Positions 6,101 through 42,240 are shown, counted from the first letter of the stretch. The stretch is DNA of 61,470 nucleotides from an uncultured Acidobacteriota bacterium (GCA_964628935.1 CAZVOE010000004.1:1-61470); one strand, 5' to 3'. The notes: generated by a model from the sequence alone, not told the origin. Numbers and translations: made by a program.

Positions 6101-7863
6101 GGAGTTTCGAGGACGATCAGGCGGGCGCCCATCTCGGGGAGGCGGTCGGAACCGCAGGCGACCTCAACGGGGATGGGTACGCCGACATCGTTGTCGGCGC
6201 TCCGGATCGCGACGCTCAGTACGTCGACCACGGACGCGTGCTCGTCTTCCACGGTTCGGCTTCTGGACTCCCTGCGAGCCCGGTCTGGAGCGTGGACGGG
6301 GCCAGCGCGAGGAACTTGGGAGAGTCGGTCGGGACCGCAGGAGACGTCAACGGGGACGGATACGCGGAGCTAATCGTCGGTGCTCCGGCATTGACCGGGG
6401 CCGATCGCGGCCACGCCTACCTTCACTACGGGAACGGTGGTCCAGGTCTCGCGCTGCTCCCGCGTCAGCTTCGCGACGATCTCGCGACACCCATCGCCCC
6501 GCTCGGCGAGTCCGACCGAACCGACGGCTTCCGCCTCTCTCTGATCGGCCGTTCCCCCTTCGGGCGTGGAAAGATCGGGGTCGACTGGGAGGTGAAGACT
6601 CTCGGAGTTCTCTTCGACGGGGAGGGGCTCGAGAGCGTGCCCCCCGAGCACGACACGGGCACCGACGGTAGGACGCTCGAGGGGGTGCTCTCGGGCCTCG
6701 CGGCGGGACGGCCGTTTCATTGGCGCGCGCGGCTCGTGCACGATCCCGTCACCTACCCGTTCCAGCGTCGCGGCCGCTGGATCGCGATGCCGTGGAACGG
6801 TTGGCAAGAAGCCGACCTTCGCACCGACTCGCAGGCCGATCTTTCGGTCTCGCAAACCGACTCCCCCGATCCACAGTTCGAGGGGCAGCCGGTCGACTAC
6901 ACCGTCGCCGTGTCGAATGAGGGACCCGCTGCAGCGACGGCAACCCTGACCGACACTTTTCCCGAGGGCTCCACGTTCGTCTCTGCGTCGCCCGCTCAAG
7001 GAACGTGTTCTCACACCTCGGGGATCGTGACCTGCGATCTCGGCGAGATCGGCGTCGGAGCGACGGCAGAGGTTGTCATCCAGGTCTCGGCGCCCGACGG
7101 ATGGGGGACCGCGACCAACGTCGCGACGGTGGCCGTCGGGGCTCCCGCGACGGATCCAGAAGCGTCGAACGACACTTCCTCCGAATCCACCCAGATCCGA
7201 GCCCTGAACATCGGGGACCGCGTCTGGCGCGACCTGGACCGCGACGGCGTGCAGGACGAGGGAGAACCGGGGCTCGCGGGGGTCGTCGTCCTGCTCTACG
7301 ACGGTGCGGGCGGGCTGCTCGATGCCGTTGCCACGAACCACAACGGCTACTACACCTTCTTCGAGGGACTTTCCTACGGAACGCTGTACAACCTCCGCTT
7401 CGACCTTCCCGTCGGCTTCGACTTCTCGCCTCGGGATCAGGGAGCCGACGACTCGCTCGACAGCGACGCGGATCCTGTGACCGGCGACACGGCGATCTTC
7501 TCCCTGACCGAGTTCACCGACGCGACCGGATGGGACGCCGGCATGCACGACTGCTGGGCTCCGGACGAGGCGGTCTGGCTCTACGAGGTCGGCGTGACGA
7601 ACGATGGGAACGACTACCCGGTCCTGAACTTCCAGGACCCCAACCAGCCCGATCAGGTGACCGGCTACAACATCTACCGGTCCGACGACGCGGGCCTGCC
7701 TCCGGCCGAATGGCCCCTCGTCGCCTCGGACGTCGTCGACATGGACGAGGCGACGCCGAACAAGCAGTGGGTCGACACGTCGGGCGACGTGCCGCCTTCG
7801 GGAATCTGGTACTACCAGGTCACCGCCGCCAACCATCGCTGCCCGGCCGAGGGGCCGCGCTGA
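3133..7863 (+). CDS. giant secreted FG-GAP (integrin-alpha-like) repeat protein with C-terminal DUF11-like, SdrD-B-like and Fn3-like domains
   Basis: Signal-peptide-like start [25 protein letters not shown]. Fourteen units each contain (A/G)GD(V/L)N(G/A)(D/G)G(F/Y)(A/S/G)D(V/I)(V/I)VGAP. Then [20 protein letters not shown] (DUF11-like), [25 protein letters not shown] (SdrD B-like) and GYNIYRS...YYQVTAA (Fn3-like). Confidence 0.9.
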
Positions 7864-21780: not shown

Positions 21781-24482
21781 CATGGGAGCAGCTCGGTCGT
21801 GACCGTCGCTCCCCCCATCTCGGGTACGACGCTCGTGACCTTGACGACCTTCCGTGACGCCCTGCAGATCCACACGGACGCCTTCTCGGCTCCTCCCTCG
21901 GCGGGGGAGACGTCGACCCGCCAGGCCTCGAAGGTCCCCGCGGGGACGGTCACCGTCTCGATCGCCGAGACGGCGAGCCGCATGACCTTCTCCTTCTGGA
22001 ACCGGACGTCGAAGTTCCGATAGGCCGTCTCGTATCCCGGTTCGAGCGGCAGGGCCGCGATCGCCTCGAACGCTCCTGCGCCGTCGGCGAAGAGCGCCCC
22101 TCCGAGGTCGACCGAGACGGGCCGGGGCTCGCCCCCCATCGCCATGGTGCCGGCGATCTTCCCGTTCTCTACCTTCAGATCGATCTGGACCGGTCCCTGC
22201 CGGACCGAGCGGGAGATCAGCGTCAGGGAGCCCTTGGCGAGAGTCGTGCGGTCCTCCGCTTGCCCCATCGGCGACGAGACTTTGTCGATGACGGTCCAGG
22301 TCTCGCCCGTGTCCTCGATCGTCCGTCCGATCGAAAGGGAGATCGACTGTCCTCCTGCCTCGATCCTGGACTCGTACCGGAACGTTCCCGGTACGAGCGC
22401 GGCCGAGGGCGTCGGGGCGCCGACGGCGGCGGCGACCCGCTTCGGGAGCGTCACCGTCTTGACGTCGACCGTCAGCTCCCGGAGCCGCGTCGCCACCTCG
22501 GGGGTCATGCTCTCCTGGAAACGCCCCCCGAGGTGCTTCGCGAGGAACTTCTCGGTGGAGGCGAACATCGCCATGTTGTTCACCGGGCGCGCGAAGCCGT
22601 GGCCCTCGTCCGGGGCGACGAGGTACTCGACGGGGAAACCCCGGTCCCTCAGGGCGACGACGATCTGGTCGGATTCGGCCTGCTTGACCCGCGGATCGTT
22701 CGCTCCCTGGACGACGAGGAGGGGCGTCTTGATCTTCCCCGCGGAACTCAGCGGCGACTGCCGTTCCAGCTGCGCCTTCCCCTCGGGCGTCGACGGATCG
22801 CCCATCCGGAAGTGGAAGATCGTCCGGATCGCTTCCCAGTAGGGAGGGATGCTGTCGAGGAGTGTGATCAGGTTCGAGGGCCCGACGATCGAGACTCCCG
22901 CGGCGTAGACGTCGGGGGTGAAGGCGAGGCCGGCGAGGGTGGCGTACCCGCCGTAGGAGCCGCCCATGATCCCCACGCGCTTCGGGTCGACGACGCCCTG
23001 AGAGACGAGGTGCTTGACCCCCCACGTCAGGTCGTCCTGCATCTTCTGTCCCCATTCATTGTTCCCGGCGTTCAGGAAGTCCTTGCCGTACCCGGTCGAT
23101 CCCCGAAAGTTCGGCTGGAGGACGGCGTAGCCGCGATTGGCCAAGAACTGCGCGAACGCGTCGTACCCCCAGGAATCGCGCGCCCACGGGCCGCCGTGGG
23201 GGACGACGACGAGCGGGAGCCCCTTCGAGGGAACCCCCTTGGGGACGGTCAGGAACGCCGGGATCTCGCGGCCGTCGGAGGAGGGGTACGAAATCGCCTG
23301 CATCGGCGCGAGGTGCTCGCGAGGAAGGTCCTCGAAGACCCGGTACTGGAACTCGAGCTTTCCGCTCTTCCGGTCGTAGAGCCAGCGCTCTCCCGGCTCC
23401 GTGTCGCTCCCCGCGGCGATCAGGAAGAGTCGCTCGTCGGCGGTCGTCGACCCGAGGCTGACCTCCTTCCCCGGGAGTTTCTTTCGGATCCGCTCGTAGT
23501 CGGCCTTCCAGATGTCGTCCCTCCAGTAGATCCGGGTCCGCTCGTCCTCGTACGCCGTTCCGACGAGCTCCTCGCTGACCTCGGAGAAGATTGGGGAGCC
23601 GAAGTCCACCCGTCCTTCGGGGTCCGACTCGACGAGCTCCTCCTTGCGGGATTCGGGGTCGAACAGGACGAGGCGGGTGAGGTCGACGCCGTCCCCCTTG
23701 TTGGTGACCATGTAGATCCTCTTCCCGTCCTTGTGGAAGCGGGCTGGACCGCAGGTCTCGAAAACGCTGCAGGAATACACCTCGGTGAATCCGGCCTCGT
23801 CGACGCGCAAGATCTGGGTGGAGCCGCTCTCGGCGATGCGTACGGCGAGCCGTAGATTCCCCGCGAGGTCGAAGAACCAGGAGGCTATCCGGGCGTCGTT
23901 CTTCCGGAGGAGTGTCCGCTCCCCGGTCGAGATCTTGACCCGGTAGAGGTCGTGCCAGGCGGGGTCGCGGTCGTTGAGCCCCACGTAGATCACGTCCGGG
24001 TCGGTCTTCGGGACCGAGTAGATCATCGCCCGCACTTTCTCCAGCTCGGTGAGGTTTCGCGGGGTGGGGACCTTCGCTCCCTTCGCGGGCTCGGCGGATG
24101 GGTCGACGGCGTAGACGTTGTAGTTCTCGTCCCCGCCCCGGTCCTGGACGAAGAGGACGAAGCGGCTGTCGCGGGACCAGAAGAAGGCGGGAATGGGCCG
24201 CTTCGTGTCCGCAGTCAGCGGCTTCGCCTTGTCGAACGAAGCGCCGGTCTTCTTGACCCAAATGTTCCGCGTGCCGTCGAGCGGCTTGATGAAGGCGACG
24301 AACTTCCCGTCGGGGGAGAGTTGCGCTCCCGAGATCTCGGGGTCCCCGAAGAACGCCTCGCGGTCGATGAGCGGCGGGAGCGACGCCGTCTTGGCGGACG
24401 CCGGTGTCGCGAGGAGGAGGGCGGCCGCCGCGAGGGCGAGCGCCGCCGAGGTCCGAAGGGTGCGGGGGGTGAAGATCGGCAT
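21780..24482 (-). CDS. S9 family serine peptidase (prolyl oligopeptidase/dipeptidyl-peptidase type) with N-terminal beta-propeller and extra ~240-aa C-terminal domain
   Basis: Signal peptide. Catalytic triad contexts GIMGGSYGGYATL (Ser), VVQGANDPRV (Asp), PDEGHGF (His). C-terminal tail with DUF3108/LolA-like beta-rich composition. Confidence 0.9.
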   Translation of the reverse strand: MPIFTPRTLRTSAALALAAAALLLATPASAKTASLPPLIDREAFFGDPEISGAQLSPDGKFVAFIKPLDGTRNIWVKKTGASFDKAKPLTADTKRPIPAFFWSRDSRFVLFVQDRGGDENYNVYAVDPSAEPAKGAKVPTPRNLTELEKVRAMIYSVPKTDPDVIYVGLNDRDPAWHDLYRVKISTGERTLLRKNDARIASWFFDLAGNLRLAVRIAESGSTQILRVDEAGFTEVYSCSVFETCGPARFHKDGKRIYMVTNKGDGVDLTRLVLFDPESRKEELVESDPEGRVDFGSPIFSEVSEELVGTAYEDERTRIYWRDDIWKADYERIRKKLPGKEVSLGSTTADERLFLIAAGSDTEPGERWLYDRKSGKLEFQYRVFEDLPREHLAPMQAISYPSSDGREIPAFLTVPKGVPSKGLPLVVVPHGGPWARDSWGYDAFAQFLANRGYAVLQPNFRGSTGYGKDFLNAGNNEWGQKMQDDLTWGVKHLVSQGVVDPKRVGIMGGSYGGYATLAGLAFTPDVYAAGVSIVGPSNLITLLDSIPPYWEAIRTIFHFRMGDPSTPEGKAQLERQSPLSSAGKIKTPLLVVQGANDPRVKQAESDQIVVALRDRGFPVEYLVAPDEGHGFARPVNNMAMFASTEKFLAKHLGGRFQESMTPEVATRLRELTVDVKTVTLPKRVAAAVGAPTPSAALVPGTFRYESRIEAGGQSISLSIGRTIEDTGETWTVIDKVSSPMGQAEDRTTLAKGSLTLISRSVRQGPVQIDLKVENGKIAGTMAMGGEPRPVSVDLGGALFADGAGAFEAIAALPLEPGYETAYRNFDVRFQKEKVMRLAVSAIETVTVPAGTFEAWRVDVSPAEGGAEKASVWICRASRKVVKVTSVVPEMGGATVTTELLP

Positions 24483-24569
24483 GGATCACCTCGATGGCGG
24501 CGGTGCGGGCGGACCCGCCCGACCGCTGGAACTCTGAGTACGGTCCGCAACGAGGAGGGTTTCACCCCC

Positions 24570-26306
24570 TCAGAAGAGGATCGGCGCGTCCGACCCCGAA
24601 GGCCGCGAAACGCCGAGCAGGAGCGAAAGGGTGGGCGCGATCGACGCAGGACCGACCCGGTCGGTCCGCACGCCGGAGGGGAGGCCGAAGCCGCCGATCA
24701 ATACCGGGACCTCCGCGTCGTACGCCCACGCTTGCGAGTGGTTGGCCGGGTACGGGGCCTCTTCGCCGACCGATTCCTCGACGAGGTCGGACATCGCGAA
24801 CGGCTCCATGACGACGACGAGATCGCCGGAGCGCTCGGGATGGAACCCGCGGGAAACGGCGTGTCCGATCGGTGTATCGGGAAGGCGCCCCTCGACGACC
24901 GCGGTCCGGCCGAAGGCGGCGTAGACCCCCGGAAGGCGCGCCACTCCTCGCGCGGCGGCCTCCTCGGCGGCGGCCCGCGTCGGGGCCTTCGCGAGCGCGT
25001 CGGGGGCGAACCAGAGGTACGGCTCGTGGAAAGCGTTTCCCCCCTCGTCCGTTTTCAAGAGCCAACGGCCTTCGCCGAATGTCTCGTCGAGCGCCTCCTC
25101 GGCGGCGTCCTCGATCCGTTTCGAGAGAACTCGACGCGCGCCGATTCGGTGGGCCGCGAGGTCCTCTGGAGGAGGCGCGATCCCGTGGTCGCTCGAAACC
25201 ACGACGACGACGGAGGCGAGTCCTCCCGGAACCTCGGCCTCGAGGAAGCGCAGGAAGTCGGAGAGCGCGCGGTCGGCGCGGAGGAACGCGTCGAGCGTCT
25301 CGGGGGCGTAGGGGCCCCACGCGTGCCCGATCCAGTCGCCCGCGGAGAGGCCGAGCGTCAGGAGGTCCGGCACCGCGTTCTTCCCGAGGCCGATCTCCCT
25401 CACCGCGCGGCGCGCGGCCGCGAAGACGGCGTCGTTCGCGAACGGGGTGCGGAGGAATTCCTTCGCGGTCTCCTTTCCCTCCGCGATGCGGTGGGGAAAT
25501 GCCGCCCCCATGCCGAGCGGGCCCTTCCAGCCCGGAAAGGAAAGGGAGCGCGCCCTGCCCTCCAGCCCGGCCTTCACCGTCTCGGGGAGCGGTTCCCAGA
25601 CCCGGCCGGCGGGGTTCTTCAAAGGGGCGAGGACGTCCTCCGCCGACAGCCAGGAAGGCAGGCCCCCCTCGGGGAGATAGGCGCGGCTCGAGATCCAGCG
25701 AAGGTCGCCCGTGTCGAGCCAGAGAACGAGATCGGCGGCGTGGCCGGCCATGAGGATCGCGGCGCGGTCCTTGACCGCGATCGAGACGGTGTGGGACCGC
25801 CCCGCCGTCGCCATCTCGAGTTCGTCCCCGACGGTCGTCACGCGGAGATTCGCCGGGCCGACGGGGGGAAGGGTGCGCCCCGGGGGGAGGCCGACGATCG
25901 TCCCCTTCGGGTCCTCGACGCAGTAGACGGGCTTCCCCATCGCCGGGTCGATCCAGTCGTTCCCCACGATTCCCGTCGCGTACGGGTCGGCCCCCGTGAG
26001 AAGGACCGCGTGCCCCGGGCCGGTTTCGTTCGGGACGTGGGTGAACCGGGAATCGGCGAACCACGTCCCCTCGGTCGTCAGCCAACGGAATCCCCCGACG
26101 CGCCCCTGTGCATCGCGCGCCGGAAGGAGGAGGTCGGGCCAGCGCCTCAGGTAGTCGGCCCGGAAGAGGTCGAGGGAAACGACGACCGCGAGGCGGGGGC
26201 GGATTCCGTCGGAGAGGTTGCGGCGGAAGTCGGCGGCGGAGCGCGCCGCGGGAGGGAACGACAGGGAGGCGGCGAGGACGACGAGGAGTCGCGACGGTTT
26301 CGGCAT
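24570..26306 (-). CDS. alkaline phosphatase-superfamily nucleotide pyrophosphatase/phosphodiesterase (NPP/PafA-like), secreted
   Basis: Signal peptide MPKPSRLLVVLAASLSFPPAARSA. VVVSLDLFRADYL, PNETGPGHAVLLTGADP (Thr nucleophile context), VVSSDHG. Confidence 0.85.
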   Translation of the reverse strand: MPKPSRLLVVLAASLSFPPAARSAADFRRNLSDGIRPRLAVVVSLDLFRADYLRRWPDLLLPARDAQGRVGGFRWLTTEGTWFADSRFTHVPNETGPGHAVLLTGADPYATGIVGNDWIDPAMGKPVYCVEDPKGTIVGLPPGRTLPPVGPANLRVTTVGDELEMATAGRSHTVSIAVKDRAAILMAGHAADLVLWLDTGDLRWISSRAYLPEGGLPSWLSAEDVLAPLKNPAGRVWEPLPETVKAGLEGRARSLSFPGWKGPLGMGAAFPHRIAEGKETAKEFLRTPFANDAVFAAARRAVREIGLGKNAVPDLLTLGLSAGDWIGHAWGPYAPETLDAFLRADRALSDFLRFLEAEVPGGLASVVVVVSSDHGIAPPPEDLAAHRIGARRVLSKRIEDAAEEALDETFGEGRWLLKTDEGGNAFHEPYLWFAPDALAKAPTRAAAEEAAARGVARLPGVYAAFGRTAVVEGRLPDTPIGHAVSRGFHPERSGDLVVVMEPFAMSDLVEESVGEEAPYPANHSQAWAYDAEVPVLIGGFGLPSGVRTDRVGPASIAPTLSLLLGVSRPSGSDAPILF

Positions 26307-31211: not shown

Positions 31212-31643
31212 ATGGGGGGGGCGCCGGACGATCGCGTGGGCAAGGAGCGGAGCTTCGAACGGAATCTCGAGGCCGTGAAAACCCTCCTCGACTGGTTCGA
31301 GGAGGAGGCCCGGGAGCTCTCAATCCCCTCGGACACCCTGCGTCCCCTGGAGCTCGCGATCGAAGAGATCTTCGCGAACTGCGTCCGCCACAATCCGGGA
31401 GGAACGGGTCCGATCGACATCCGCATCGAACGCCAGGGCGCCCGTGTCCGGGTCGCGATCGTCGATCCCGACGCCGAACGTTTCGACCCGCGGGCGGCCG
31501 CGGAGGTCCGGACCGAACTCCCCCTGGAGCAGCGGCGGCCGGGTGGGCTCGGGATCCACTTTGTCCGCGCCATCGTCGACGAGATCGACTACCGTCACGA
31601 GGGTCGCCGGGCGATCACCGTTCTCGTCAAGAACTTGGGGTGA
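31212..31643 (+). CDS. RsbW/SpoIIAB-like anti-sigma serine kinase (HATPase_c_2)
   Basis: 143 aa. N-box EEIFANCVRHN, G-boxes IVDPDAERFDP and RRPGGLGIHFVRAIVDE. Confidence 0.8.
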   Translation: MGGAPDDRVGKERSFERNLEAVKTLLDWFEEEARELSIPSDTLRPLELAIEEIFANCVRHNPGGTGPIDIRIERQGARVRVAIVDPDAERFDPRAAAEVRTELPLEQRRPGGLGIHFVRAIVDEIDYRHEGRRAITVLVKNLG

Positions 31644-31647
31644 GGCG

Positions 31648-31938
31648 ATGCTCGAGATCGGCTGGGGAGAGGACGGAAAAATCCGAATCGCAGGGCGATT
31701 CGACGCGTCCGAGGCGGAGCGGGTCGAGGCGTTCCTGGATGCGGTGGATACCTCGAACGAGCTGGACCTCGGTGGTCTCGAGTACATCTCGAGCCTCGGG
31801 CTCGGCGTGCTCCTCAAGACCCAGAAGCGGCTCAGGACCGCGGGGCAGTCTCTCCGGCTCGTCAGGATGCCTCCCCACATCCGCGATATCTTCCGTTTTT
31901 CCGGTTTCGACCGGGTTTTCGAGATCGATTCCCCATGA
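31648..31938 (+). CDS. STAS-domain anti-sigma-factor antagonist (RsbV/SpoIIAA-like)
   Basis: 96 aa. LDLGGLEYISSLGLGVLL carries the conserved phosphorylatable Ser context. Starts 4 nt after the kinase stop. Confidence 0.8.
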   Translation: MLEIGWGEDGKIRIAGRFDASEAERVEAFLDAVDTSNELDLGGLEYISSLGLGVLLKTQKRLRTAGQSLRLVRMPPHIRDIFRFSGFDRVFEIDSP

Positions 31939-32537
31939 GCGTCGACGAATCGTCCGCTTCCGACCAACTCTCCCCGCGCCGCGGTGTAGTTCCGGATGGC
32001 GCACCGGAGGATGTGGAGGTGGTCCGGCGCGTCCGGAGCGGCGATGTCGAGTCCTTTGCGATCCTGGTGCGGCGTTACGAAAAGCCGGTCTACAACGCCG
32101 TGCGACGGATGGTCCGGGACCGGGATGACGCCCGCGACCTCGCGCAGAACGCGTTTCTCAAGGCATTCCGCGAACTCGACTCGTTCGACGAGCGCTACCG
32201 ATTCTTCTCCTGGCTCTACAGGATCGCCATCCACGAGTCGCTCAATCATCTCCGTGGGGGCGGGCGCTCGGAGCCCCTTCCGTTCGAACGGCGCGATCTC
32301 GGGCCTGGCCCGGAAGACCATGCGGCCGCCCGCCAACGATCGCGGCTCCTGGAGGACGCGTTGAACCGCCTGAGCGCGGACCACCGCGCCGTCATCCTTC
32401 TCCGCCACTTCGGGGAGTGCTCGTACGCGGAGATCGGGGACGCCCTGGGGATTCCCGAGAAAACGGTGCGTTCTCGACTTTTCGAGGCGCGGCGCTCCCT
32501 CCGTTCCATCCTTGTCGACCTTGGGGTGGTGCGATGA
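31935..32537 (+). CDS. ECF sigma-70 family factor
   Basis: Region 2: FAILVRRYEKPVYNAVRRMVRDRDDARDLAQNAFLKAF, FFSWLYRIAIHESLN. Region 4: ILLRHFGECSYAEIGDALGIPEKTVRSRLFEAR. ATGA overlap with the STAS gene. Confidence 0.9.
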   Translation: MSVDESSASDQLSPRRGVVPDGAPEDVEVVRRVRSGDVESFAILVRRYEKPVYNAVRRMVRDRDDARDLAQNAFLKAFRELDSFDERYRFFSWLYRIAIHESLNHLRGGGRSEPLPFERRDLGPGPEDHAAARQRSRLLEDALNRLSADHRAVILLRHFGECSYAEIGDALGIPEKTVRSRLFEARRSLRSILVDLGVVR

Positions 32538-33553
32538 TCGACCGGCAGGACGAGATCGACGGCATCCTGTCCCAACTTCCGGAGGAGGAGGTCCCCGAGG
32601 GGTTCGCGGCGGGGGTCATGGAGAAGGTGCGGATCGAAGTGATGAAAAGAGGCACCGACGGGTTCTCCGCCGGCGCTGTCGCCGAGGAGAGAGGCGGATT
32701 TCGAACGATCCAAGGGAGGGTTCGGGTCATGTCCAGCAAGTCCGATTCAACGAATGTCTGGCGTACCGTCTTCGCGACCGCGGCCGCCGTGGCGGTGATC
32801 GGGATCGGGGCGTACGTCCTCGGGTTCCGCCCGTCGGCCGAAGAGTCGGCGGGCACCGTGGGAGCGGCCCGGAAGCACCGTGCCGAGCAGATCCAGCCGA
32901 AGGACGTAGCGGTGGAGGGGATCGGTGGAGAGGCGTTCCTTCAGACGGAGATCTTCGACCGTCTGGTGAACGACCCCGCCGCCCGAGAGGCCCTTTCCAA
33001 CGACGCGTTCCGCGAGGCGTTGACGAACGACGCCTTCCGGCAGGCTCTCACGAGCGACGCGTTCCGCGCCGCCTTCTCGCAGGATGCGTTCCGCGCCGCG
33101 CTGACGAGCGACGCGTTCCGGGACGCGCTCCGGAGCCGAGCCTTCCGCGACGCGTTCACGAGCGACGCGTTCCGGGACGCGCTTCGGAACGAGGCCTTCC
33201 GCGACGCGCTCCGGTCCGACGCGCTTCGCGACGCCATGATCCAGGACGCCTTCCGCGCCGCCTTCGCGAACGAGGCCTTCCGCGAGGCGCTCAAGAGCCA
33301 GGCGTTCCGCGATGCGCTCACGAGCGACGCCTTCCGCGATGCGCTCACGAGCGACGCCTTCCGCGCCGCGCTTGCAAGTGACGCCTTCCGGTCGGCTTTC
33401 CTGAGCGACGCCTTCCGCGATGCGCTCGCGAGCGACGCCTTCCGGCAGGCTCTCACGAGCGACGCGTTCCGGGACGCTCTCCGGAGCGATGCCTTCCGAG
33501 ACGCTCTCCGGAGCGAAGCGTTCCGCGACGCCATGGCGCGGGGCGGCGACTGA
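32534..33553 (+). CDS. single-pass membrane protein co-translated with the ECF sigma (putative anti-sigma/sensor); its ectodomain is 20 tandem nonapeptide 'ALTSDAFRD' repeats
   Basis: ATGA overlap with the sigma gene. LPEEEVPEGFAAGVMEKV resembles the pre-TM segment of ECF anti-sigmas. TM helix WRTVFATAAAVAVIGIGAYVLGF. Residues 153-332 are a 9-aa repeat array. Confidence 0.8.
   Translation: MIDRQDEIDGILSQLPEEEVPEGFAAGVMEKVRIEVMKRGTDGFSAGAVAEERGGFRTIQGRVRVMSSKSDSTNVWRTVFATAAAVAVIGIGAYVLGFRPSAEESAGTVGAARKHRAEQIQPKDVAVEGIGGEAFLQTEIFDRLVNDPAAREALSNDAFREALTNDAFRQALTSDAFRAAFSQDAFRAALTSDAFRDALRSRAFRDAFTSDAFRDALRNEAFRDALRSDALRDAMIQDAFRAAFANEAFREALKSQAFRDALTSDAFRDALTSDAFRAALASDAFRSAFLSDAFRDALASDAFRQALTSDAFRDALRSDAFRDALRSEAFRDAMARGGD
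32990..33529 (+). repeat. 20 x 27-nt in-frame tandem repeat (consensus peptide A-L-T/R-S-D-A-F-R-D)
   Basis: Read directly from the sequence. Adjacent units 33311-33337 and 33338-33364 are identical 27-mers (gatgcgctcacgagcgacgccttccgc). A degenerate unit (RLVNDPAARE) precedes the array. Confidence 0.95.
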
Positions 33554-33586
33554 GCCGCTCCCGGGCCGGGACCCGATTCCGAGAGG

Positions 33587-33618
33587 AAGCCCCGCGCCCG
33601 CGGGGCTTTCCTTTTTTC
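33587..33618 (+). terminator. Rho-independent terminator after the repeat-protein gene
   Basis: AAGCCCCGCG-cc-CGCGGGGCTT stem followed by TCCTTTTTTC. Confidence 0.8.
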
Positions 33619-33646: not shown

Positions 33647-36586
33647 GTGAAAACCCTAGCCCTCCCATCGGTCCTCGTTTTTTTTCTCGTCCTCCCATTC
33701 CCGGGACGCTCGGCGGAACTCGAGACCCTCAAGACCGACGACCTGCTGCTGGTCTACCGAGACCCCCTCCAGACCTTCCTGGCCCCCCATGCGGCGCGCT
33801 GCTTCGAGAACTCGATGGACTTCCAGAAGCGGGTGCTCGGCTGGAAGCCCTCGTCGCCGGTCACCGTCCTTCTGAACGACTACTCGGACGCGGGGAACGC
33901 GAGCGCCCTCGGCGTCCCGAGGAATCTCCTTCTCCTCGAAACTTCCCCCGTCGGGGTTAACTTCGAGACGGTCACGACGAACGAGCGCCTCAACTGGCTC
34001 TTCAACCACGAGCTCATCCACATCGCGACCGTCGATCGGGCGGCCGGGCGCGACCGGTTCTTTCGAAAGGCCTTTCTCGGGAAGGTCGCTCCCACCTCCG
34101 AGCACCCCGCGACGATCCTCTGGTTCTACCTGACCTCCCCCCGCGACGCGGCACCCCGCTGGTACCACGAAGGGATCGCCGTCTTCGCGGAGACCTGGAT
34201 GGCTGGGGGGGTCGGTCGCGCGCAGGGGGCTTGGGACGAGATGGTCTTTCGGGCGATGGTGCGGGACGGCGCGCGATTCTACGACCCGCTCGGCCTCGTC
34301 TCGGAGGGGACAAAGACCGACTTTCAGGTCGAGGTCAATTCCTATCTTTACGGCACGCGGTTCGTGACCTGGCTCGCGTACACCCGATCTCCCGCCCATC
34401 TCGTCCGGTGGGTCGCCCGGGAGGAGGGTTCGAAGGCCTACTACGCCGCTCGCTTCGAGGAAGTGTTCGGAAAGCCCCTCGACGCCGCTTGGGCCGACTG
34501 GATCGCGTGGGAGAAAGAATTCCAGACGCGGAACCTCGAGGCGATCCGGACCTACCCGGTCACGAAGGCGCGGGACGTTTCGGACCGGGCGCTCGGATCG
34601 GTCTCACGAGCGGCGTTCGACGCCGAGCGGCGACGGTTCTACGCCGCCTTCCACTACCCGGGCCAGGTCTCCTCCATCGGCTCGATCTCGCTGGAGGACG
34701 GACACGTCGAGCGGATCGTCGAGGTGAAGGACCCGGTCCTGTTCACGGTCACCTCTCTGGCCTGGGATTCGCTCCGGCGGAGAATCTTCTACACCGCGGA
34801 CAACCGCGAATACCGCGACCTTCGGGAGGTCGACCCGGAGACCGGGGAGTCGCGGACCCTCCTCAAGGATGCACGGATCGGCGACCTCGCCTTCGACCGG
34901 GCGACCGGCGACCTCTGGGGGATCCGGCACTTCAACGCGATCGCCTCCCTCGTCCGGATCCCGCCACCGTACGACAGCTGGGGCCTCGTGCGGTCGTGGC
35001 CGTACGGAGAGGTCCCCCGGGACCTCGACGTATCCGCCGACGGCTCGTTTGTCGCGGTCGCGGTCGGCGGCATCGACGGGCGCCACGTCCTGCGCGTCTA
35101 CTCCGTGGAAGACCTGCTTCGCGGCGACGCCTCCCCGGTCGCGGAAACCTCCTTCGGCGAGGCGGCCCCGCTGAACTTCGTCTTCTCCGGCGACGGCCGG
35201 TTTCTGTACGGAACCACGACCTACACAGGGGTCCCCAACGTTTTCCGCTGGGAATGGGACGCGAACCGCATCGAGGCGGTCACGAACGCCGTGTCCGGAT
35301 TTTTCCGTCCGCTTCCCCTCCCCGATGGCAACCTCCTGGTCTTCCGGTACACCGGTGAGGGGTTCATTCCCGCGATCGTTCGCCCGGAGCCGATCGACGA
35401 CATCGAGCCGATCGAATTCCTCGGGGCGAGGCTGATCGACAAGTTCCCGGAGCTCGCGGACTGGAACGTCGGCTCGCCCGCGGAGATCCCGCTCGAAGAG
35501 CGCACGCGCGGCACGGGGCCGTACCGCTCGGGCCGCAGCATCCGCGTCGAATCCCTCTACCCGATCCTCGAGGGGTACAAGGACAGCGCCGCCGCGGGTC
35601 TCCGCCTCAACCTCTCCGACCCGCTCCTGCTGAACCGGCTCGCCCTGGCGGCCTCGTACTCTCCCGACCGCGAACTCGCGTCGGACGAGCGGCTGCACGT
35701 CGACCTGCGCTACAGCCGTTACGACTGGCGCGCGAACGCGAAGTGGAACGACGCCGATTTCTACGACCTCTTCGGACCGACGAAGACGAGCCGCAAGGGG
35801 TACTCGTTCGGCGGGGGTTGGGGGCGCACGCTCCTGTACGATCGGCCCCGCACGGTGCGGCTCGACCTCGATGCCGCCTACCATGGCGATCTCGAGATCC
35901 TCCCCGACTACCAGAACATCGCTTCGCCCGTCTCCCGACTCCTCTCGTTCGAGGGGAAGCTCGAGTACGCGAACGTCCGGTCCTCCCTCGGCCACGTCGA
36001 CGAGGAAAAGGGGCACCGCGTCGAGGCGCTCGCCCTCGTCGACCGCGTGCCCGGCGAGACCTTCCCGAAGCTGCTCGTCTCGTACGACCAGGGGTTCCCA
36101 CTCCGCCTCGACCATTCCTCCGTCTGGCTCCGCACCGCGGCCGGGGTCGGGTCGGGAGGCCGGGAGAGCCCGCTGAGCCACTTCTACTTCGGCGGTTTCG
36201 GGAACAACTGGGTCGACCACGGAAACGAAAAGCGCTACCGCGAGCCTTGGAGCTTCCCAGGTCTCGAGATCAACGAGGTCGGGGGAAGGACCTTCGGCAA
36301 GCTGCTCCTCGAGTGGAACCTGCCGCCACTCCGGTTCCGCCGCCTCGGCTCTCCCGGCTTCCATGCAACGTGGCTCCGCACGTCGCTCTTCGCGACCGGC
36401 ATCGCCACCGACTTCGACGACGGGACGCTCCGCCGCGAAGTCGGAAACGTCGGGGTCCAAGTGGACGTCCGTTTCTCGGTCCTCTCGCGCCTGGAGATGA
36501 CCCTGTCCCTGGGCTACGCTTCCGCGTTCGAGCGGGGTTTCGGGCCGAAAGACGAGGTCATGGCTTCGCTCAAGGTCCTCCAGTGA
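33647..36586 (+). CDS. secreted multidomain protein: Peptidase_MA-like (HExxH) domain + beta-propeller region + C-terminal Omp85/surface-antigen-like beta-barrel; GTG start
   Basis: Signal peptide VKTLALPSVLVFFLVLPFPGRSA. NHELIHIA (34007-34021) with downstream WYHEGIAVFAETW (gluzincin-like third ligand). Propeller-like repeats (FYTADNREYRDLREVDPETGESRTLL, FLYGTTTYTGVPNVFRW). Barrel-like tail with alternating hydrophobics and SHFYFGGFGNNWVD. Confidence 0.75.
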   Translation: MKTLALPSVLVFFLVLPFPGRSAELETLKTDDLLLVYRDPLQTFLAPHAARCFENSMDFQKRVLGWKPSSPVTVLLNDYSDAGNASALGVPRNLLLLETSPVGVNFETVTTNERLNWLFNHELIHIATVDRAAGRDRFFRKAFLGKVAPTSEHPATILWFYLTSPRDAAPRWYHEGIAVFAETWMAGGVGRAQGAWDEMVFRAMVRDGARFYDPLGLVSEGTKTDFQVEVNSYLYGTRFVTWLAYTRSPAHLVRWVAREEGSKAYYAARFEEVFGKPLDAAWADWIAWEKEFQTRNLEAIRTYPVTKARDVSDRALGSVSRAAFDAERRRFYAAFHYPGQVSSIGSISLEDGHVERIVEVKDPVLFTVTSLAWDSLRRRIFYTADNREYRDLREVDPETGESRTLLKDARIGDLAFDRATGDLWGIRHFNAIASLVRIPPPYDSWGLVRSWPYGEVPRDLDVSADGSFVAVAVGGIDGRHVLRVYSVEDLLRGDASPVAETSFGEAAPLNFVFSGDGRFLYGTTTYTGVPNVFRWEWDANRIEAVTNAVSGFFRPLPLPDGNLLVFRYTGEGFIPAIVRPEPIDDIEPIEFLGARLIDKFPELADWNVGSPAEIPLEERTRGTGPYRSGRSIRVESLYPILEGYKDSAAAGLRLNLSDPLLLNRLALAASYSPDRELASDERLHVDLRYSRYDWRANAKWNDADFYDLFGPTKTSRKGYSFGGGWGRTLLYDRPRTVRLDLDAAYHGDLEILPDYQNIASPVSRLLSFEGKLEYANVRSSLGHVDEEKGHRVEALALVDRVPGETFPKLLVSYDQGFPLRLDHSSVWLRTAAGVGSGGRESPLSHFYFGGFGNNWVDHGNEKRYREPWSFPGLEINEVGGRTFGKLLLEWNLPPLRFRRLGSPGFHATWLRTSLFATGIATDFDDGTLRREVGNVGVQVDVRFSVLSRLEMTLSLGYASAFERGFGPKDEVMASLKVLQ

Positions 36587-37611
36587 CCGTCCTGCTCGAC
36601 GCCGCCGCGCGCGTCCTTCTCGGCTTCGTTCCCGTGCTCGGCCTTCTGGTGGCGCTCCGCGCCTTCGATGCCCACAAGCTCCTGCGCCTGCGGGACGTGG
36701 TCCGGACCCTCGCGTTGGGGGCGGCCTGTGCTCTCGTCGCGCTCCCGACGAACAAGGCGCTCGAGGAGATCCTCGGCTTCGAGACCCAGGCCGTGTCGCG
36801 CTACGTCGCCCCGCTCGTCGAGGAGGCTCTCAAGGCCGGCGTGCTCGTGTGGCTCATCCGCGGCCACCGGGTCGGGTTTCTCGTGGACGCGGGGATCCAC
36901 GGGTTCGCGGCGGGAGCCGGCTTCGCCCTCGCCGAGAACTTTCAGTTCTGGCTTTCGAGGCCCGACGCCGGCCTCGCGGTCTGGTTCGTTCGCGGGTGCG
37001 GCACGGCCGTGATGCACGCGGGAACCGGGGGGGTGATCGCCCTGGGGGCGAAGGCCGGATGGGATCGCGCGGTCGCGCCGCGGGCCGTCCACTGGGCGCC
37101 GGGTTTCGCGATCGCCGTGGCCCTCCACTCCGCCTTCAACCACTTCCCCGTCTCGCCGCTCCTATCGACGGCGGGGATCGCCGTCGTGGCGCCGCCGCTC
37201 GTCGCCGCGGTGTTCCAGCGCGCGGTGCGGGGGACGCAGCACCGGTTGCGCCGCGGCTTCGATGCCGACACGGAACTTCTCGGGTTGATTCTGACGGGCG
37301 CAATCTCGCATTCCCCCGTCGGCGAGTACCTCGCGAACCTGCGGGAGCGGTTTCGGCCGGAGGTCGTGGTCGATCTTCTCTGCTACCTCAGAATCCGTTT
37401 GGAACTCTCCCTTCACGTGAAGGGCCTCCTCCTCCTGAGGGAGGCAGGGTTCGATCCGGAGCCCGACCCCCAGATCGGGGCGAAACTCACCGAGCTCGAG
37501 TTCCTCGAGAAGAGCATCGGAGCGACGGGGCGGCTGGCGTTGGCTCCGTTTCTCCGAGGCGGACCCGAAGAGATCTGGCAGAACGGATTGCTCCGCGGCG
37601 GGGGGCGCTGA
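36583..37611 (+). CDS. PrsW-family intramembrane metalloprotease with ~110-aa cytoplasmic C-terminal extension; GTG start
   Basis: VEEALKAG, GFAAGAGFALAENF, GTAVMHAGTGG, LHSAFNH (PrsW signature boxes). GTGA overlap with the upstream gene. Confidence 0.85.
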   Translation: MTVLLDAAARVLLGFVPVLGLLVALRAFDAHKLLRLRDVVRTLALGAACALVALPTNKALEEILGFETQAVSRYVAPLVEEALKAGVLVWLIRGHRVGFLVDAGIHGFAAGAGFALAENFQFWLSRPDAGLAVWFVRGCGTAVMHAGTGGVIALGAKAGWDRAVAPRAVHWAPGFAIAVALHSAFNHFPVSPLLSTAGIAVVAPPLVAAVFQRAVRGTQHRLRRGFDADTELLGLILTGAISHSPVGEYLANLRERFRPEVVVDLLCYLRIRLELSLHVKGLLLLREAGFDPEPDPQIGAKLTELEFLEKSIGATGRLALAPFLRGGPEEIWQNGLLRGGGR

Positions 37612-41832: not shown

Positions 41833-42240
41833 ATGTCAAATATGAATCGCGACCGTTCGGGGGCTCCGGTTCTTCAGGCTGACCTTTCGCCTGAAGGGGT
41901 CGTCGTGCTCCGCCCGGGCGCGGACGGCCCCGTTCGGGGCGCACAGGTCGAGGCCATCCTCGCGGCCGTCGAGCCGATGCTCCGCGATCCCGGCGCGCGG
42001 GTCGCTCTCGACGTCTCCCGGATCGAGTTCTTCGGTCCCAACGAGATCGATGCCCTGCTGAAGCTACGGGACGACGCCAAGAGACAGGACAGCCGGTTCG
42101 CGGTCTTCGGAGTCGCGGGGGTGATCCGGGACATCTTCCAGCTCGGGGGCCTCGACGTGCTGATCGGGGCGTTCCCGAACGAGGAGGCGGCGCTCCGGTA
42201 TCTCGCCGGCGCTCCCCGTCCCGGCGAGCGGTGGCATTAG
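41833..42240 (+). CDS. orphan STAS-domain protein (anti-sigma antagonist-like) lacking the conserved Ser
   Basis: VALDVSRIEFFGPNEIDALLKL occupies the position where RsbV/SpoIIAA-type proteins have (D/S)SxG. Two in-frame ATGs (41833, 41842); AAGGA spacing favours 41842. Confidence 0.7.
   Translation: MSNMNRDRSGAPVLQADLSPEGVVVLRPGADGPVRGAQVEAILAAVEPMLRDPGARVALDVSRIEFFGPNEIDALLKLRDDAKRQDSRFAVFGVAGVIRDIFQLGGLDVLIGAFPNEEAALRYLAGAPRPGERWH

Follow-up and report, generated by a model that had tools for sequence, protein, structure and literature searches.

A conserved cassette places an ECF sigma factor beside a predicted membrane antagonist, a PrsW-family protease and a partner-switching module

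Introduction

Of the alternative sigma factors, those of the ECF type form the largest class. The catalogued modes of their control comprise membrane anti-sigma factors, PhyR/NepR mimicry, Ser/Thr kinases and C-terminal extensions; a switch made of an RsbW-like kinase, a STAS protein and a PP2C phosphatase was not among them in the literature that we searched, and the main text of the ECF reclassification paper has no entry for STAS, RsbW or PrsW. Promoters of the Bacillus subtilis SigW type follow an AAC-N16/17-(C/T)GTA consensus, and the sigB promoter lies 5' of the kinase and STAS genes. In the sigma-W system, RsiW is cleaved by PrsW and RasP (PMC3498285), and Bordetella BtrS is antagonised by a secreted anti-sigma factor, BtrA (PMC7498569). 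No kinase-sigma interaction was found for Rhodobacter RbaW, and the downstream target of Nostoc HmpV is undefined (PMC13712970; PMC3999984; PMC10120452). Here, we describe a gene cassette, not reported in the literature searched, in which an ECF sigma factor gene is accompanied both by genes of the kind found in regulated anti-sigma proteolysis and by a partner-switching module.

Results

We analysed a 61,470-nucleotide stretch of DNA from an uncultured Acidobacteriota bacterium (hereafter the window), in which four closely packed genes had been predicted to encode a HATPase_c_2 kinase, a STAS antagonist, an ECF sigma factor and a single-pass membrane protein. The features of the locus are as follows:

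31212..31643, + strand: gene for an RsbW-like GHKL serine kinase (143 aa; Pfam HATPase_c_2)
31648..31938, + strand: gene for a STAS protein of the anti-sigma-antagonist type (96 aa; STAS_2, TIGR00377; phospho-acceptor Ser in YISSLGLG)
31935..32537, + strand: gene for an ECF sigma factor, RpoE/AlgU/SigW-like (200 aa from ATG 31935; Sigma70_r2 + r4_2, TIGR02937)
32534..33553, + strand: gene for a single-pass membrane protein (339 aa; anti-sigma remnant, TM helix, conserved juxtamembrane domain, nonapeptide repeats)
31963..31991, + strand: predicted sigma-type promoter motif P1 (ACCAACTCT-N13-TGTAGTT; AAC-N17-GTA)
32552..32638, + strand: remnant of a class-I anti-sigma domain (residues 7-35, EIDGILSQLPEEEVPEGFAAGVMEKVRIE; end of helix 3 plus helix 4)
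32765..32827, + strand: transmembrane segment (about residues 78-98 of the membrane protein; sequence read directly)
33001..33531, + strand: tandem nonapeptide repeats SDAFRDALx, periplasmic tail (Tandem Repeats Finder: period 27, 19.7 copies)
33585..33610, + strand: predicted terminator-like hairpin (11-bp stem with 8 GC pairs, then a T run) between the membrane-protein and outer-membrane-protein genes
33647..36586, + strand: gene for the outer-membrane protein (OMP) of the cassette (979 aa)
36583..37611, + strand: gene for a PrsW-family membrane protease (Pfam PF13367, E 3e-14, residues 39-209 of 342)

The tight packing, with gaps or overlaps of 4 nt or less, is real: the kinase and STAS genes are separated by a 4-nt gap, and the STAS-sigma and sigma-membrane protein junctions are ATGA overlaps. 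The domain assignments of all four genes also held (HATPase_c_2, STAS_2, Sigma70_r2/r4_2 and one hydrophobic span). An upstream dehydrogenase gene ends 2 nt 5' of the kinase gene, an adjacency common only to the window and a same-genus genome.

Comparison with related loci identifies the four genes as the regulatory front of a conserved, putatively envelope-signalling cassette of seven genes, joined in some members by a PP2C gene: (GAF-PP2C) / kinase / STAS / sigma / class-I anti-sigma / repeat protein / OMP / PrsW. The order recurs at every orthologous locus examined, as kinase-STAS-sigma-(anti-sigma)-repeat protein-OMP-PrsW in 15 of 15 loci of the family, order and class, and the order of the genes far exceeds chance. 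Using the OMP only as an anchor for locating more distant relatives, we found 44 loci in at least six phyla, of which 40 contain the sigma factor, 38 an anti-sigma domain, 41 the repeat protein, 31 the kinase, 39 any STAS protein and 20 a PP2C; PrsW is present in 36 of the 40 informative cassettes. Hosts include Acidobacteriota, Gammaproteobacteria, Eisenbacteria, Ignavibacteria, Zixibacteria and Latescibacterota. OMP orthologues (55-89% identical) occur in all cassettes, and at least 521 OMP relatives, most of them from uncultured phyla of soil and sediment, were found in a collection with a single genome for each species. The proposed tie of an ECF sigma factor to both an RsbW/STAS pair and a membrane protein is thus a linkage kept across phyla despite rearrangements: the cassette keeps kinase and STAS in co-directional and divergent arrangements alike, and also where the pair follows PrsW or lies between OMP and PrsW.

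The kinase matches HATPase_c_2 with E 2.7e-22, and against solved structures its family profile finds RsbW (6M36, E 1e-8) and SpoIIAB (E ~6e-5). Residues E51, E52 and N56 of the N-box and G111, L113 and G114 of the G2 box are invariant. Because the G1 region in the window reads DPDAERFD and has no glycine, we grade catalytic competence no higher than likely. The cassette kinases form one clade, separate from the genome's own paralogues (support 100/100), which splits into two sub-clades; independent recruitment of two kinase types to the cassette is ruled out by this single clade.

The STAS protein (STAS_2 E 4.8e-15; NCBIfam TIGR00377 at 55.2 bits, cut-off 53.45) shows the highest conservation among the cassette's regulators, with a median identity of 51% across orthologues compared with 33% for the kinase, the least conserved component. 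The serine of YISSLGLG, noted as conserved in the original prediction, is unchanged in 16 orthologues. A Ser-bearing STAS is retained in seven Vicinamibacterales cassettes and nests within the divergent-type cassette STAS clade, in a tree built on 99 columns and with modest support. When four of these seven genomes were searched whole, no cassette-type kinase was found (best 29-36 bits or no match, where the window's kinase scores 187 bits with a comparable profile). Such lineages, with STAS but no kinase, point to STAS as the output of the switch. Elsewhere in the window, a STAS gene at 41833-42240 was considered as a second cassette STAS and rejected: it lacks the Ser motif, none of the cassette loci contains a relative, and it branches far from all others.

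The membrane protein has, as predicted, a short N-terminus, a single hydrophobic span (about residues 78-98), no HxxxCxxC motif and no full anti-sigma domain. Against an anti-sigma profile of 78 positions that was derived from relatives, its residues 7-35 align to positions 46-74 (E 2e-7), and only these profile positions are present. Most relatives have the full domain; in the window, no complete four-helix class-I domain adjoins the sigma factor, and the genome holds no other copy of the cassette's anti-sigma, the membrane protein being single-copy genome-wide. The ectodomain consists of about 20 nonapeptide repeats (27-nt period). An internal Shine-Dalgarno sequence and ATG at 32729 lie 5' of the TM segment, and the repeat protein of split-type relatives starts at an equivalent Met. 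On sequence grounds, the membrane protein is a repeat protein fused to the last ~30 residues of an anti-sigma domain, and ATG 32729 is the ancestral start of a once-separate repeat-protein gene.

In a sister lineage, G018, a full anti-sigma domain is fused to the repeat protein, and on the OMP tree the short-form label must have changed on at least four separate occasions. Our in silico reconstruction indicates that, in the lineage of the window, fusion of the ancestral anti-sigma gene with the repeat-protein gene came first and loss of helices 1-3 followed, with only helix 4 kept. The relatives G001 and G002 conserve the remnant, as do five short forms from Vicinamibacterales. Lineages with a short-N anti-sigma (L080, L090) are among those with STAS but without a cassette kinase. 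In class-I anti-sigma factors, helix 4 makes 12 of the top 14 coevolving contacts; their partners are sigma regions 2.1 and 2.2, where the beta-prime clamp binds (PMC7406223).

The sigma factor contains Sigma70_r2 and r4_2 domains (and TIGR02937), region 3 was absent in a Pfam/NCBIfam domain search, and the nearest solved chains are 6IN7, SigW 5WUQ and RpoE 1OR7. We found a SigW-like motif, CCAAC-N17-GTA (P1), exactly where the STAS and sigma genes meet, within the 60 nt of the sigma ORF that begin at ATG 31935. With a position weight matrix trained on 23 sites 5' of repeat-protein genes, P1 scores 20.8 bits, below most relatives; it is the sole match of at least 12 bits in the 61-kb window and the sole full AAC-N17-GTA match of at least 20 bits in the 3.7-Mb genome, and its exact pattern was found once where about zero is expected by chance. 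The motif itself emerged only from true intergenic regions 5' of the repeat-protein gene, and 14 of 15 family loci carry it between the STAS and sigma genes. Applied to 1.26 Mb of distant loci, the matrix had 82 matches, 42 directly 5' of sigma genes and 35 5' of repeat-protein genes; only 4 lay away from both, and none was 5' of a kinase, STAS or PP2C gene. The OMP and PrsW genes of the window had no such motif of their own 5' of them, and enumeration of paired k-mers 5' of kinase, sigma and OMP genes did no better than shuffled controls.

These data predict an autoregulatory ECF-type promoter 5' of sigma, conserved at the same place in relatives. As this promoter falls between STAS and sigma, antagonist, kinase and sigma are not predicted to form a single sigma-autoregulated unit. 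P1 is predicted in silico to drive the sigma and membrane-protein genes, with the OMP and PrsW genes lying beyond the terminator-like hairpin. Since P1 is inside the sigma ORF, its transcripts must start translation at GTG 32019, so that the STAS/sigma overlap is relevant only to read-through transcripts. A GGAGG at 32006-32010 lies 8 nt 5' of GTG 32019, the same arrangement occurs in G001, and this GTG is the probable sigma start on P1 transcripts. In G002, the only in-frame sigma start lies 5' of P1, and sigma in this clade may therefore depend on read-through from kinase and STAS; if so, the tight operon of the original prediction would be real.

PrsW carries a C-terminal extension of about 130 aa. 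We considered this tail as a correlate of kinase presence and found no signal, the PrsW profile match being full-length in cassettes both with and without kinase. A site-2 protease candidate, an RseP-type Peptidase_M50, is encoded at C109 (204.7 bits); genes for PrsW (site 1) and an RseP/RasP-type site-2 protease are thus both present in the genome, and cleavage is predicted. The window contains no PP2C, in agreement with the original prediction, and the proposed search for a cognate phosphatase elsewhere in the genome found an orthologous GAF-PP2C on contig C32. This GAF-SpoIIE protein (G000:C32, about 23440-24711) shares 48% identity with the PP2Cs linked to cassettes and, in 4 of 5 genomes, is their reciprocal best match.

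Discussion

We favour the membrane protein as the co-expressed antagonist of sigma, because of the fusion to the remnant, the placement of P1, the C32 phosphatase, and the lineages that have STAS without kinase. In our model, the cytoplasmic helix-4 remnant of the membrane protein would bind the sigma-2 domain, and the co-expressed sigma would thereby be held at the membrane. PrsW (site 1), perhaps aided by the OMP acting on the repeat tail, and the RseP-type site-2 protease would destroy the tether, and the freed sigma would amplify its own operon. GAF-PP2C, kinase and STAS would act as a serine-phosphorylation switch, expressed separately, through which a cytoplasmic input is added and whose output is more likely STAS than a kinase sequestering sigma; STAS could target sigma, the cytoplasmic part of the membrane protein, or the PrsW tail. 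To our knowledge, a helix-4-only anti-sigma has no studied precedent, and such a protein may bind weakly. For the whole proposal, with a helix-4 tether, release by PrsW proteolysis and the partner switch as a separate input with STAS output, we estimate a probability of roughly 0.5. We are somewhat more tentative about one part, that the partner switch is integral to the ECF sigma pathway with STAS, not the kinase, as an output gating either the anti-sigma/PrsW proteolysis step or sigma.

The original prediction suggested instead that the kinase could be the real antagonist and the membrane protein a sensor. The kinase would then be a second, or here the main, anti-sigma, binding sigma until displaced by dephosphorylated STAS, and the membrane protein would serve mainly as sensor or tether. 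The kinase is indeed closest to the anti-sigma kinases RsbW and SpoIIAB, and a direct anti-sigma role would likewise predict the position that kinase and STAS occupy in most cassettes, directly 5' of sigma. In the clade of the window, anti-sigma helices 1-3 are lost and the sigma ORF now overlaps the STAS stop codon, at the upstream ATG that is the sole in-frame start in G002. However, the sigma factor lacks region 3, which is the main SpoIIAB contact in sigma-F, and the predicted sigma-type promoter would serve the sigma and membrane-protein genes but not those of kinase and STAS, so that kinase levels could not match a self-amplifying sigma. Cassettes with the same short anti-sigma (L080, L090) occur in genomes without any cassette-type kinase, STAS being retained. 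The kinase is also the component under least conservation, and its distance matrix correlates at 0.46 with that of sigma compared with 0.77 with that of STAS, a crude measure that is confounded by phylogeny. Finally, a complete class-I-type anti-sigma lies directly 3' of sigma, beside kinase and STAS, in most relatives, and the segment kept in the membrane protein is helix 4, to which the sigma-2 contact that competes with RNA polymerase has been assigned (PMC7406223). We therefore consider it unlikely that the kinase acts in this way, and it is probably not the main inhibitor of sigma.

Less likely again is that the remnant is a functionless relic, with sigma set by expression level (read-through plus autoregulation) and the membrane protein merely a repeat-bearing envelope component. 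Helices 1-3 are gone, truncation occurred repeatedly, and the internal Shine-Dalgarno sequence and ATG 32729 could yield a remnant-free isoform; but the remnant is conserved among the window, G001 and G002 in proteins that are only ~37% identical overall, all five independent Vicinamibacterales short forms keep the segment, and the ATGA overlap with sigma is retained. We give the least credence to the idea that the partner-switch genes are mere neighbours whose target lies elsewhere, such as a region-3-bearing sigma factor of the same genome. The genome has eight Sigma70_r3 matches, along with further RsbW-like kinases and at least nine SpoIIE phosphatases; the cassette promoter does not precede the partner-switch genes, and some known partner switches have no sigma target (PMC13712970; PMC3999984). 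Against this, the cassette kinases are a dedicated monophyletic family that remains in the cassette across at least six phyla and at least five different arrangements, and a cassette-type PP2C is usually adjacent too.

The cassette unites two textbook mechanisms, regulated proteolysis of an anti-sigma factor and partner switching. If the partner switch is indeed integral to the ECF sigma pathway, with STAS as its output, the cassette would provide the first documented case of an ECF / regulated-proteolysis system controlled by a partner switch, in hundreds of species and many phyla, with the anti-sigma of this lineage pared to a single sigma-2-binding helix. A natural, repeatedly evolved helix-4-only anti-sigma tests how much of the class-I domain is needed, natural variants that lack the kinase and keep STAS offer a testable handle on STAS as output, and the defined promoter motif is usable as a reporter.

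Among described systems, Vibrio fischeri SypE/SypA, Rhodobacter RbaV/W/Y and Nostoc HmpU/V/W resemble this locus in that kinase and phosphatase modulate STAS, the apparent output; those switches are not embedded in an ECF sigma/anti-sigma/protease cassette, and their targets differ or are undefined. The Bordetella btr locus, offered as a parallel in the original prediction, is a loose one: it shares an ECF sigma gene with a PP2C, kinase and STAS set in one locus, but the antagonist of BtrS is BtrA. The present locus has the anti-sigma/repeat protein, OMP and PrsW in place of these; it has no BtrA homologue, type III secretion system or such gene order, and no type III secretion-like genes were among the ORFs and domains examined at 29-38 kb. 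With the B. subtilis RsbU/P-RsbV-RsbW-sigma-B and SpoIIE-SpoIIAA-SpoIIAB-sigma-F switches, the cassette has in common a GHKL kinase, a Ser-bearing STAS and a SpoIIE/PP2C phosphatase. It differs from them in that the neighbouring sigma is an ECF factor without region 3, a membrane anti-sigma is also present, the predicted sigma-dependent promoter is 3' rather than 5' of the kinase and STAS genes, and STAS persists without kinase in some lineages. With the B. subtilis sigma-W/RsiW/PrsW/RasP system, the cassette shares an RpoE/SigW-like ECF sigma with only regions 2 and 4 (SigW 5WUQ being among the top solved matches), a membrane anti-sigma gene directly 3' of sigma, a PrsW-family protease, a site-2 protease in the genome and a predicted autoregulatory-type promoter. 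In contrast to the sigma-W system, PrsW is encoded in the cassette and has an extra C-terminal domain of ~130 aa, an OMP, a repeat protein and a partner-switch module are added, of the anti-sigma only helix 4 is left, joined to the repeat protein, and the hosts are diderm bacteria.

Gene content of the cluster

The original prediction described four tightly packed genes with gaps or overlaps of 4 nt or less, encoding a kinase, a STAS protein with the conserved serine, an ECF sigma factor and a membrane protein, and both the open reading frame coordinates and the Pfam/NCBIfam domains agree with this description. The kinase and STAS genes are 4 nt apart, and the STAS/sigma and sigma/membrane protein junctions are ATGA overlaps. 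Genes for an outer-membrane protein (OMP) and a PrsW-family protease follow:

31212-31643 (+), RsbW-like kinase; HATPase_c_2, E 2.7e-22
31648-31938 (+), STAS protein; STAS_2, E 4.8e-15; serine in YISSLGLG
31935-32537 (+), ECF sigma factor; Sigma70 r2 and r4_2, without region 3
32534-33553 (+), 339-residue membrane protein
33585-33610 (+), terminator-like hairpin in the 93-nt gap between the membrane protein and OMP genes; 11-bp stem with 8 GC pairs, T run
33647-36586, 979-residue OMP, downstream of the membrane protein gene
36583-37611, PrsW-family protease, downstream of the OMP gene

The hairpin may set how much sigma factor and membrane protein is made relative to OMP and PrsW. A Zn-dehydrogenase gene stops 2 nt 5' of the kinase gene, an adjacency otherwise found only in the same-genus genome. 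G+C content of the window is ~68-70%, and its genome (G000) is assembled into 3.7 Mb on 322 contigs at 97.8% completeness; all genomes used here are metagenome assemblies. We rejected an orphan 135-residue STAS protein encoded at 41833-42240 (+) as a further member: its serine motif is absent (FFGPNEID), none of the cassette STAS proteins is related to it, and it is missing from all related loci.

The cluster is part of a cassette conserved across phyla

The gene order behind the original prediction is kept in relatives. A kinase-based search of 60 relatives, with retrieval of 13-kb regions, recovered the order kinase-STAS-sigma-...-repeat protein-OMP-PrsW in 15/15 orthologous loci, which span the window's genus, family, order and class. 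We anchored a second survey on the OMP, an anchor independent of this finding, and scanning one genome per species yielded at least 521 OMP relatives. The best 80 of these loci were mapped with profiles built from the family, and components were counted in the 44 loci whose upstream flank reached 4.4 kb or more.

Table. Cassette components in OMP-anchored loci
Sigma factor: 40/44
Class-I-type anti-sigma domain: 38/44
Repeat protein: 41/44
PrsW: 36/40 informative loci
Kinase: 31/44
Strong STAS: 32/44
Any STAS: 39/44
PP2C: 20/44

The cassette is carried, among others, by Acidobacteriota, Gammaproteobacteria (Woeseiaceae and others), Eisenbacteria, Ignavibacteria, Zixibacteria, Latescibacterota and KSB1, and the kinase and STAS genes stay in the cassette across at least five arrangements: upstream of sigma and co-directional, divergent from sigma, divergent from PrsW (locus L078), downstream of PrsW (L115), and between OMP and PrsW (L129, L146). 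Cassette kinases form a single clade apart from G000's own RsbW-like paralogues (support 100/100), with two sub-clades that match the co-directional and divergent arrangements. Because the pair persists through these rearrangements with kinases of one clade, its linkage to the cassette is old and specific, not a chance neighborhood.

Two variants were also seen. L073 and L081 (Vicinamibacteria) and L146 (Thermoanaerobaculaceae) have kinase, STAS, repeat protein, OMP and PrsW genes, with sigma and anti-sigma absent from the flanks; in these split cassettes, the partner switch remains with the envelope genes. Five loci from Steroidobacteraceae and relatives (L112, L118, L119, L122, L126) have repeat protein and OMP genes followed, after ~1.9 kb of other sequence, by those for sigma and anti-sigma. 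None of the five has PrsW, kinase and STAS are missing from L112, L119 and L122, whose flanks are complete, and searches of two genomes with this variant found no cassette-type kinase.

The membrane protein is a fused, shortened anti-sigma factor

Most relatives have two separate genes 3' of sigma. One encodes a Cys-less class-I anti-sigma factor with a four-helix N-terminal domain (...LIHAEIDG...PP..L...VMR.V), a TM helix and a ~100-residue periplasmic domain; the other encodes a repeat protein that combines a TM helix with a conserved juxtamembrane domain (GTIGAAQRY...FLQS.TFDRIVKDP.AR) and an array of repeats whose period varies. The two are one fused ORF in 13 classified loci (12 distant loci and L053 from the relative G018), and the fused protein has a short N-terminus in the window, the relatives G001 and G002, and five Vicinamibacterales loci. 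As originally noted, the window protein lacks a full anti-sigma domain: residues 7-35 match positions 46-74 of a 78-position anti-sigma profile (E 2e-7), corresponding to helix 4 and the final part of helix 3. Helices 1 and 2 and the greater part of helix 3 are absent. The OMP tree places the window, G001 and G002 as sister to G018, bearer of the full fused form, and the short-form label changes at least four separate times on this tree. Searches of G000 found the repeat protein, OMP and PrsW only once each, and no other anti-sigma factor of cassette type adjoining this sigma factor.

Coevolution and structural work assigned anti-sigma helices 1-3 to sigma-4, and helix 4 to regions 2.1 and 2.2 of sigma, its contact surface for the RNA-polymerase clamp; helix 4 takes part in 12/14 top coevolving contacts (PMC7406223). 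The remnant is conserved in proteins otherwise just ~37% identical, suggesting that it is probably still a sigma-binding element. Within the fused ORF, a Shine-Dalgarno-like AAGGGAGGG followed by ATG 32729 (Met66; window 32712-32731) keeps the ancestral repeat protein start, from which a shorter isoform without the remnant could be made.

A predicted promoter separates the sigma factor from the partner switch

Intergenic regions 5' of the repeat protein gene in split-type loci share the motif CCAAC(y)(y)T-N13-(T/G)GTA, with an AAC-to-GTA spacing of 17 nt in 23/26 sites. The motif resembles the SigW-type consensus, AAC-N16-CGTA. A weight matrix trained on 23 repeat-protein-upstream sites gave 82 matches of at least 18 bits on both strands of 1.26 Mb from 80 distant loci: 42 directly 5' of sigma genes (none of them training sites), 35 5' of repeat protein genes, one 5' of an anti-sigma gene (L098, 18 nt beyond the end of sigma), and four classed as other, two of which (L101, L140) lie within the cassette. 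No match in these loci lay 5' of kinase, STAS, PP2C, OMP or PrsW genes.

The motif directly follows the STAS stop, before sigma, in 14/15 family loci. The window copy, P1 (31963-31991, 20.8 bits), is the sole matrix match in 61 kb, where its exact pattern occurs once versus ~0 expected by chance, and the sole full AAC-N17-GTA match of at least 20 bits in G000; a weaker candidate lies at C96:5313. This layout suggests that the sigma factor controls its own expression, jointly with that of the membrane protein, with the partner-switch genes outside the predicted sigma-promoter unit. The OMP and PrsW genes lie downstream of the same predicted promoter, past the hairpin.

A copy of the second predicted promoter, P2, persists at 20-25 bits within fused or short membrane protein ORFs, in the stretch linking the anti-sigma part to the TM helix, in L052 (G002; 8013-7985 (-), or 5381-5409 with the cassette turned to +), L077, L127, L144 and L150; it is gone from the window. 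An identical 29-nt string, GTCAACTTTTCGTTGTTCACCTTGGACTA, occurs at C291:2057(-), C285:2237(-) and C203:6(+) in G000, at most ~75 nt from the ends of three short contigs, which probably reflects a repeat that interrupted the assembly.

Most relatives have an ATG directly after the motif (GTACTT/ATGACG) without a Shine-Dalgarno sequence, which suggests a leaderless or near-leaderless sigma mRNA. In the window, G001 and G002 (window 31992-32021; L051, L052), this ATG is out of frame by +1, and the sigma ORF instead spans the promoter, opening at an ATG that overlaps the STAS stop codon. On the 3' side of P1, GGAGG-N8-GTG (32019) is present as well in the window and G001; G002 has no in-frame sigma start there. 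Since most relatives start sigma after the motif, the tight STAS/sigma overlap is a derived trait of these few genomes, and one that may tie basal sigma synthesis to the genes upstream.

STAS as the likelier output of the partner switch

No PP2C lies in the window, as the original prediction stated, and a candidate cognate is encoded elsewhere in the genome. G000 has at least nine SpoIIE-type phosphatases; one, a GAF-SpoIIE protein on contig C32 (~23440-24711), is 48% identical to PP2Cs adjoining the kinase in gammaproteobacterial cassettes and is their reciprocal best match in 4/5 genomes tested. Directly upstream (pair ~21900-24711) is a gene whose translation reads as a cNMP-binding and Ser/Thr protein kinase fusion, a hint of cyclic-nucleotide input.

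STAS is the best-conserved regulator, with median identities to the window proteins across 36 complete cassettes of 51% for STAS, 50% for OMP, 46% for PrsW, 45% for sigma and 33% for the kinase. Seven Vicinamibacterales cassettes have a lone Ser-motif STAS, mostly divergent from sigma, and no kinase within 10 kb; these STAS proteins nest inside the divergent-type cassette clade with modest support. Searching four of these genomes whole with a cassette-kinase profile gave 29-36 bits at best or no match; with a comparable profile in G000, the true kinase scores 187 bits and unrelated paralogues score at the 29-36-bit level. Two of these four genomes (L080, L090) have the window-like short-N membrane protein. 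In L094, a 776-residue ORF divergent from sigma (4509-6836 (-)) fuses a cassette-type STAS to a GAF-PP2C protein via an FHA-like segment, with FHA and GAF read from sequence. By a crude, phylogeny-confounded comparison of distance matrices, kinase and STAS form one block (r 0.77) and sigma, OMP and PrsW another (0.69-0.79), with weaker coupling between them (0.46-0.47 to sigma, 0.53 to PrsW).

The kinase was originally proposed as a possible true antagonist, with the membrane protein as a sensor. Its family profile matches RsbW (6M36, E 1e-8) and SpoIIAB, with an invariant N-box and G2 box; orthologues have either Gly or Asp in the G1 region, where the window kinase lacks Gly. We consider direct kinase-sigma binding unlikely. 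As a candidate switch output, STAS ranks above the kinase as anti-sigma factor because STAS persists without the kinase and is under stronger constraint, the kinase gene would not be co-induced with a self-amplifying sigma factor, ECF sigmas lack region 3, and many partner switches act on something other than a sigma factor (PMC13712970, PMC3999984, PMC10120452). The helix-4 remnant would tether co-expressed sigma via sigma-2, and the partner switch would supply a cytoplasmic, GAF-sensed input.

Comparison with known systems

In silico, the genome shows cassette membership of the locus, a truncated anti-sigma factor, a predicted promoter layout, PrsW and a site-2 protease, and a complete set of partner-switch proteins. 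Its proteolytic half, as predicted from the genes, would work like SigW/RsiW/PrsW/RasP. Its cytoplasmic half is built like RsbU/V/W, but the partner-switch genes do not form one autoregulated unit with sigma. Bordetella BtrS/U/V/W, cited in the original prediction as a precedent for coupling to an ECF sigma factor, is a superficial parallel only: there BtrS is antagonized by BtrA, and secretion is the process on which BtrU, BtrW and BtrV act (PMC7498569). A full-text literature search found no account that links a partner switch to an ECF sigma/anti-sigma/PrsW cassette, and STAS, RsbW and PrsW have no entry in the main text of the ECF reclassification paper. Peculiar to the window are the helix-4-only anti-sigma factor, the relocated PP2C and the shift of the sigma start onto the STAS stop codon.
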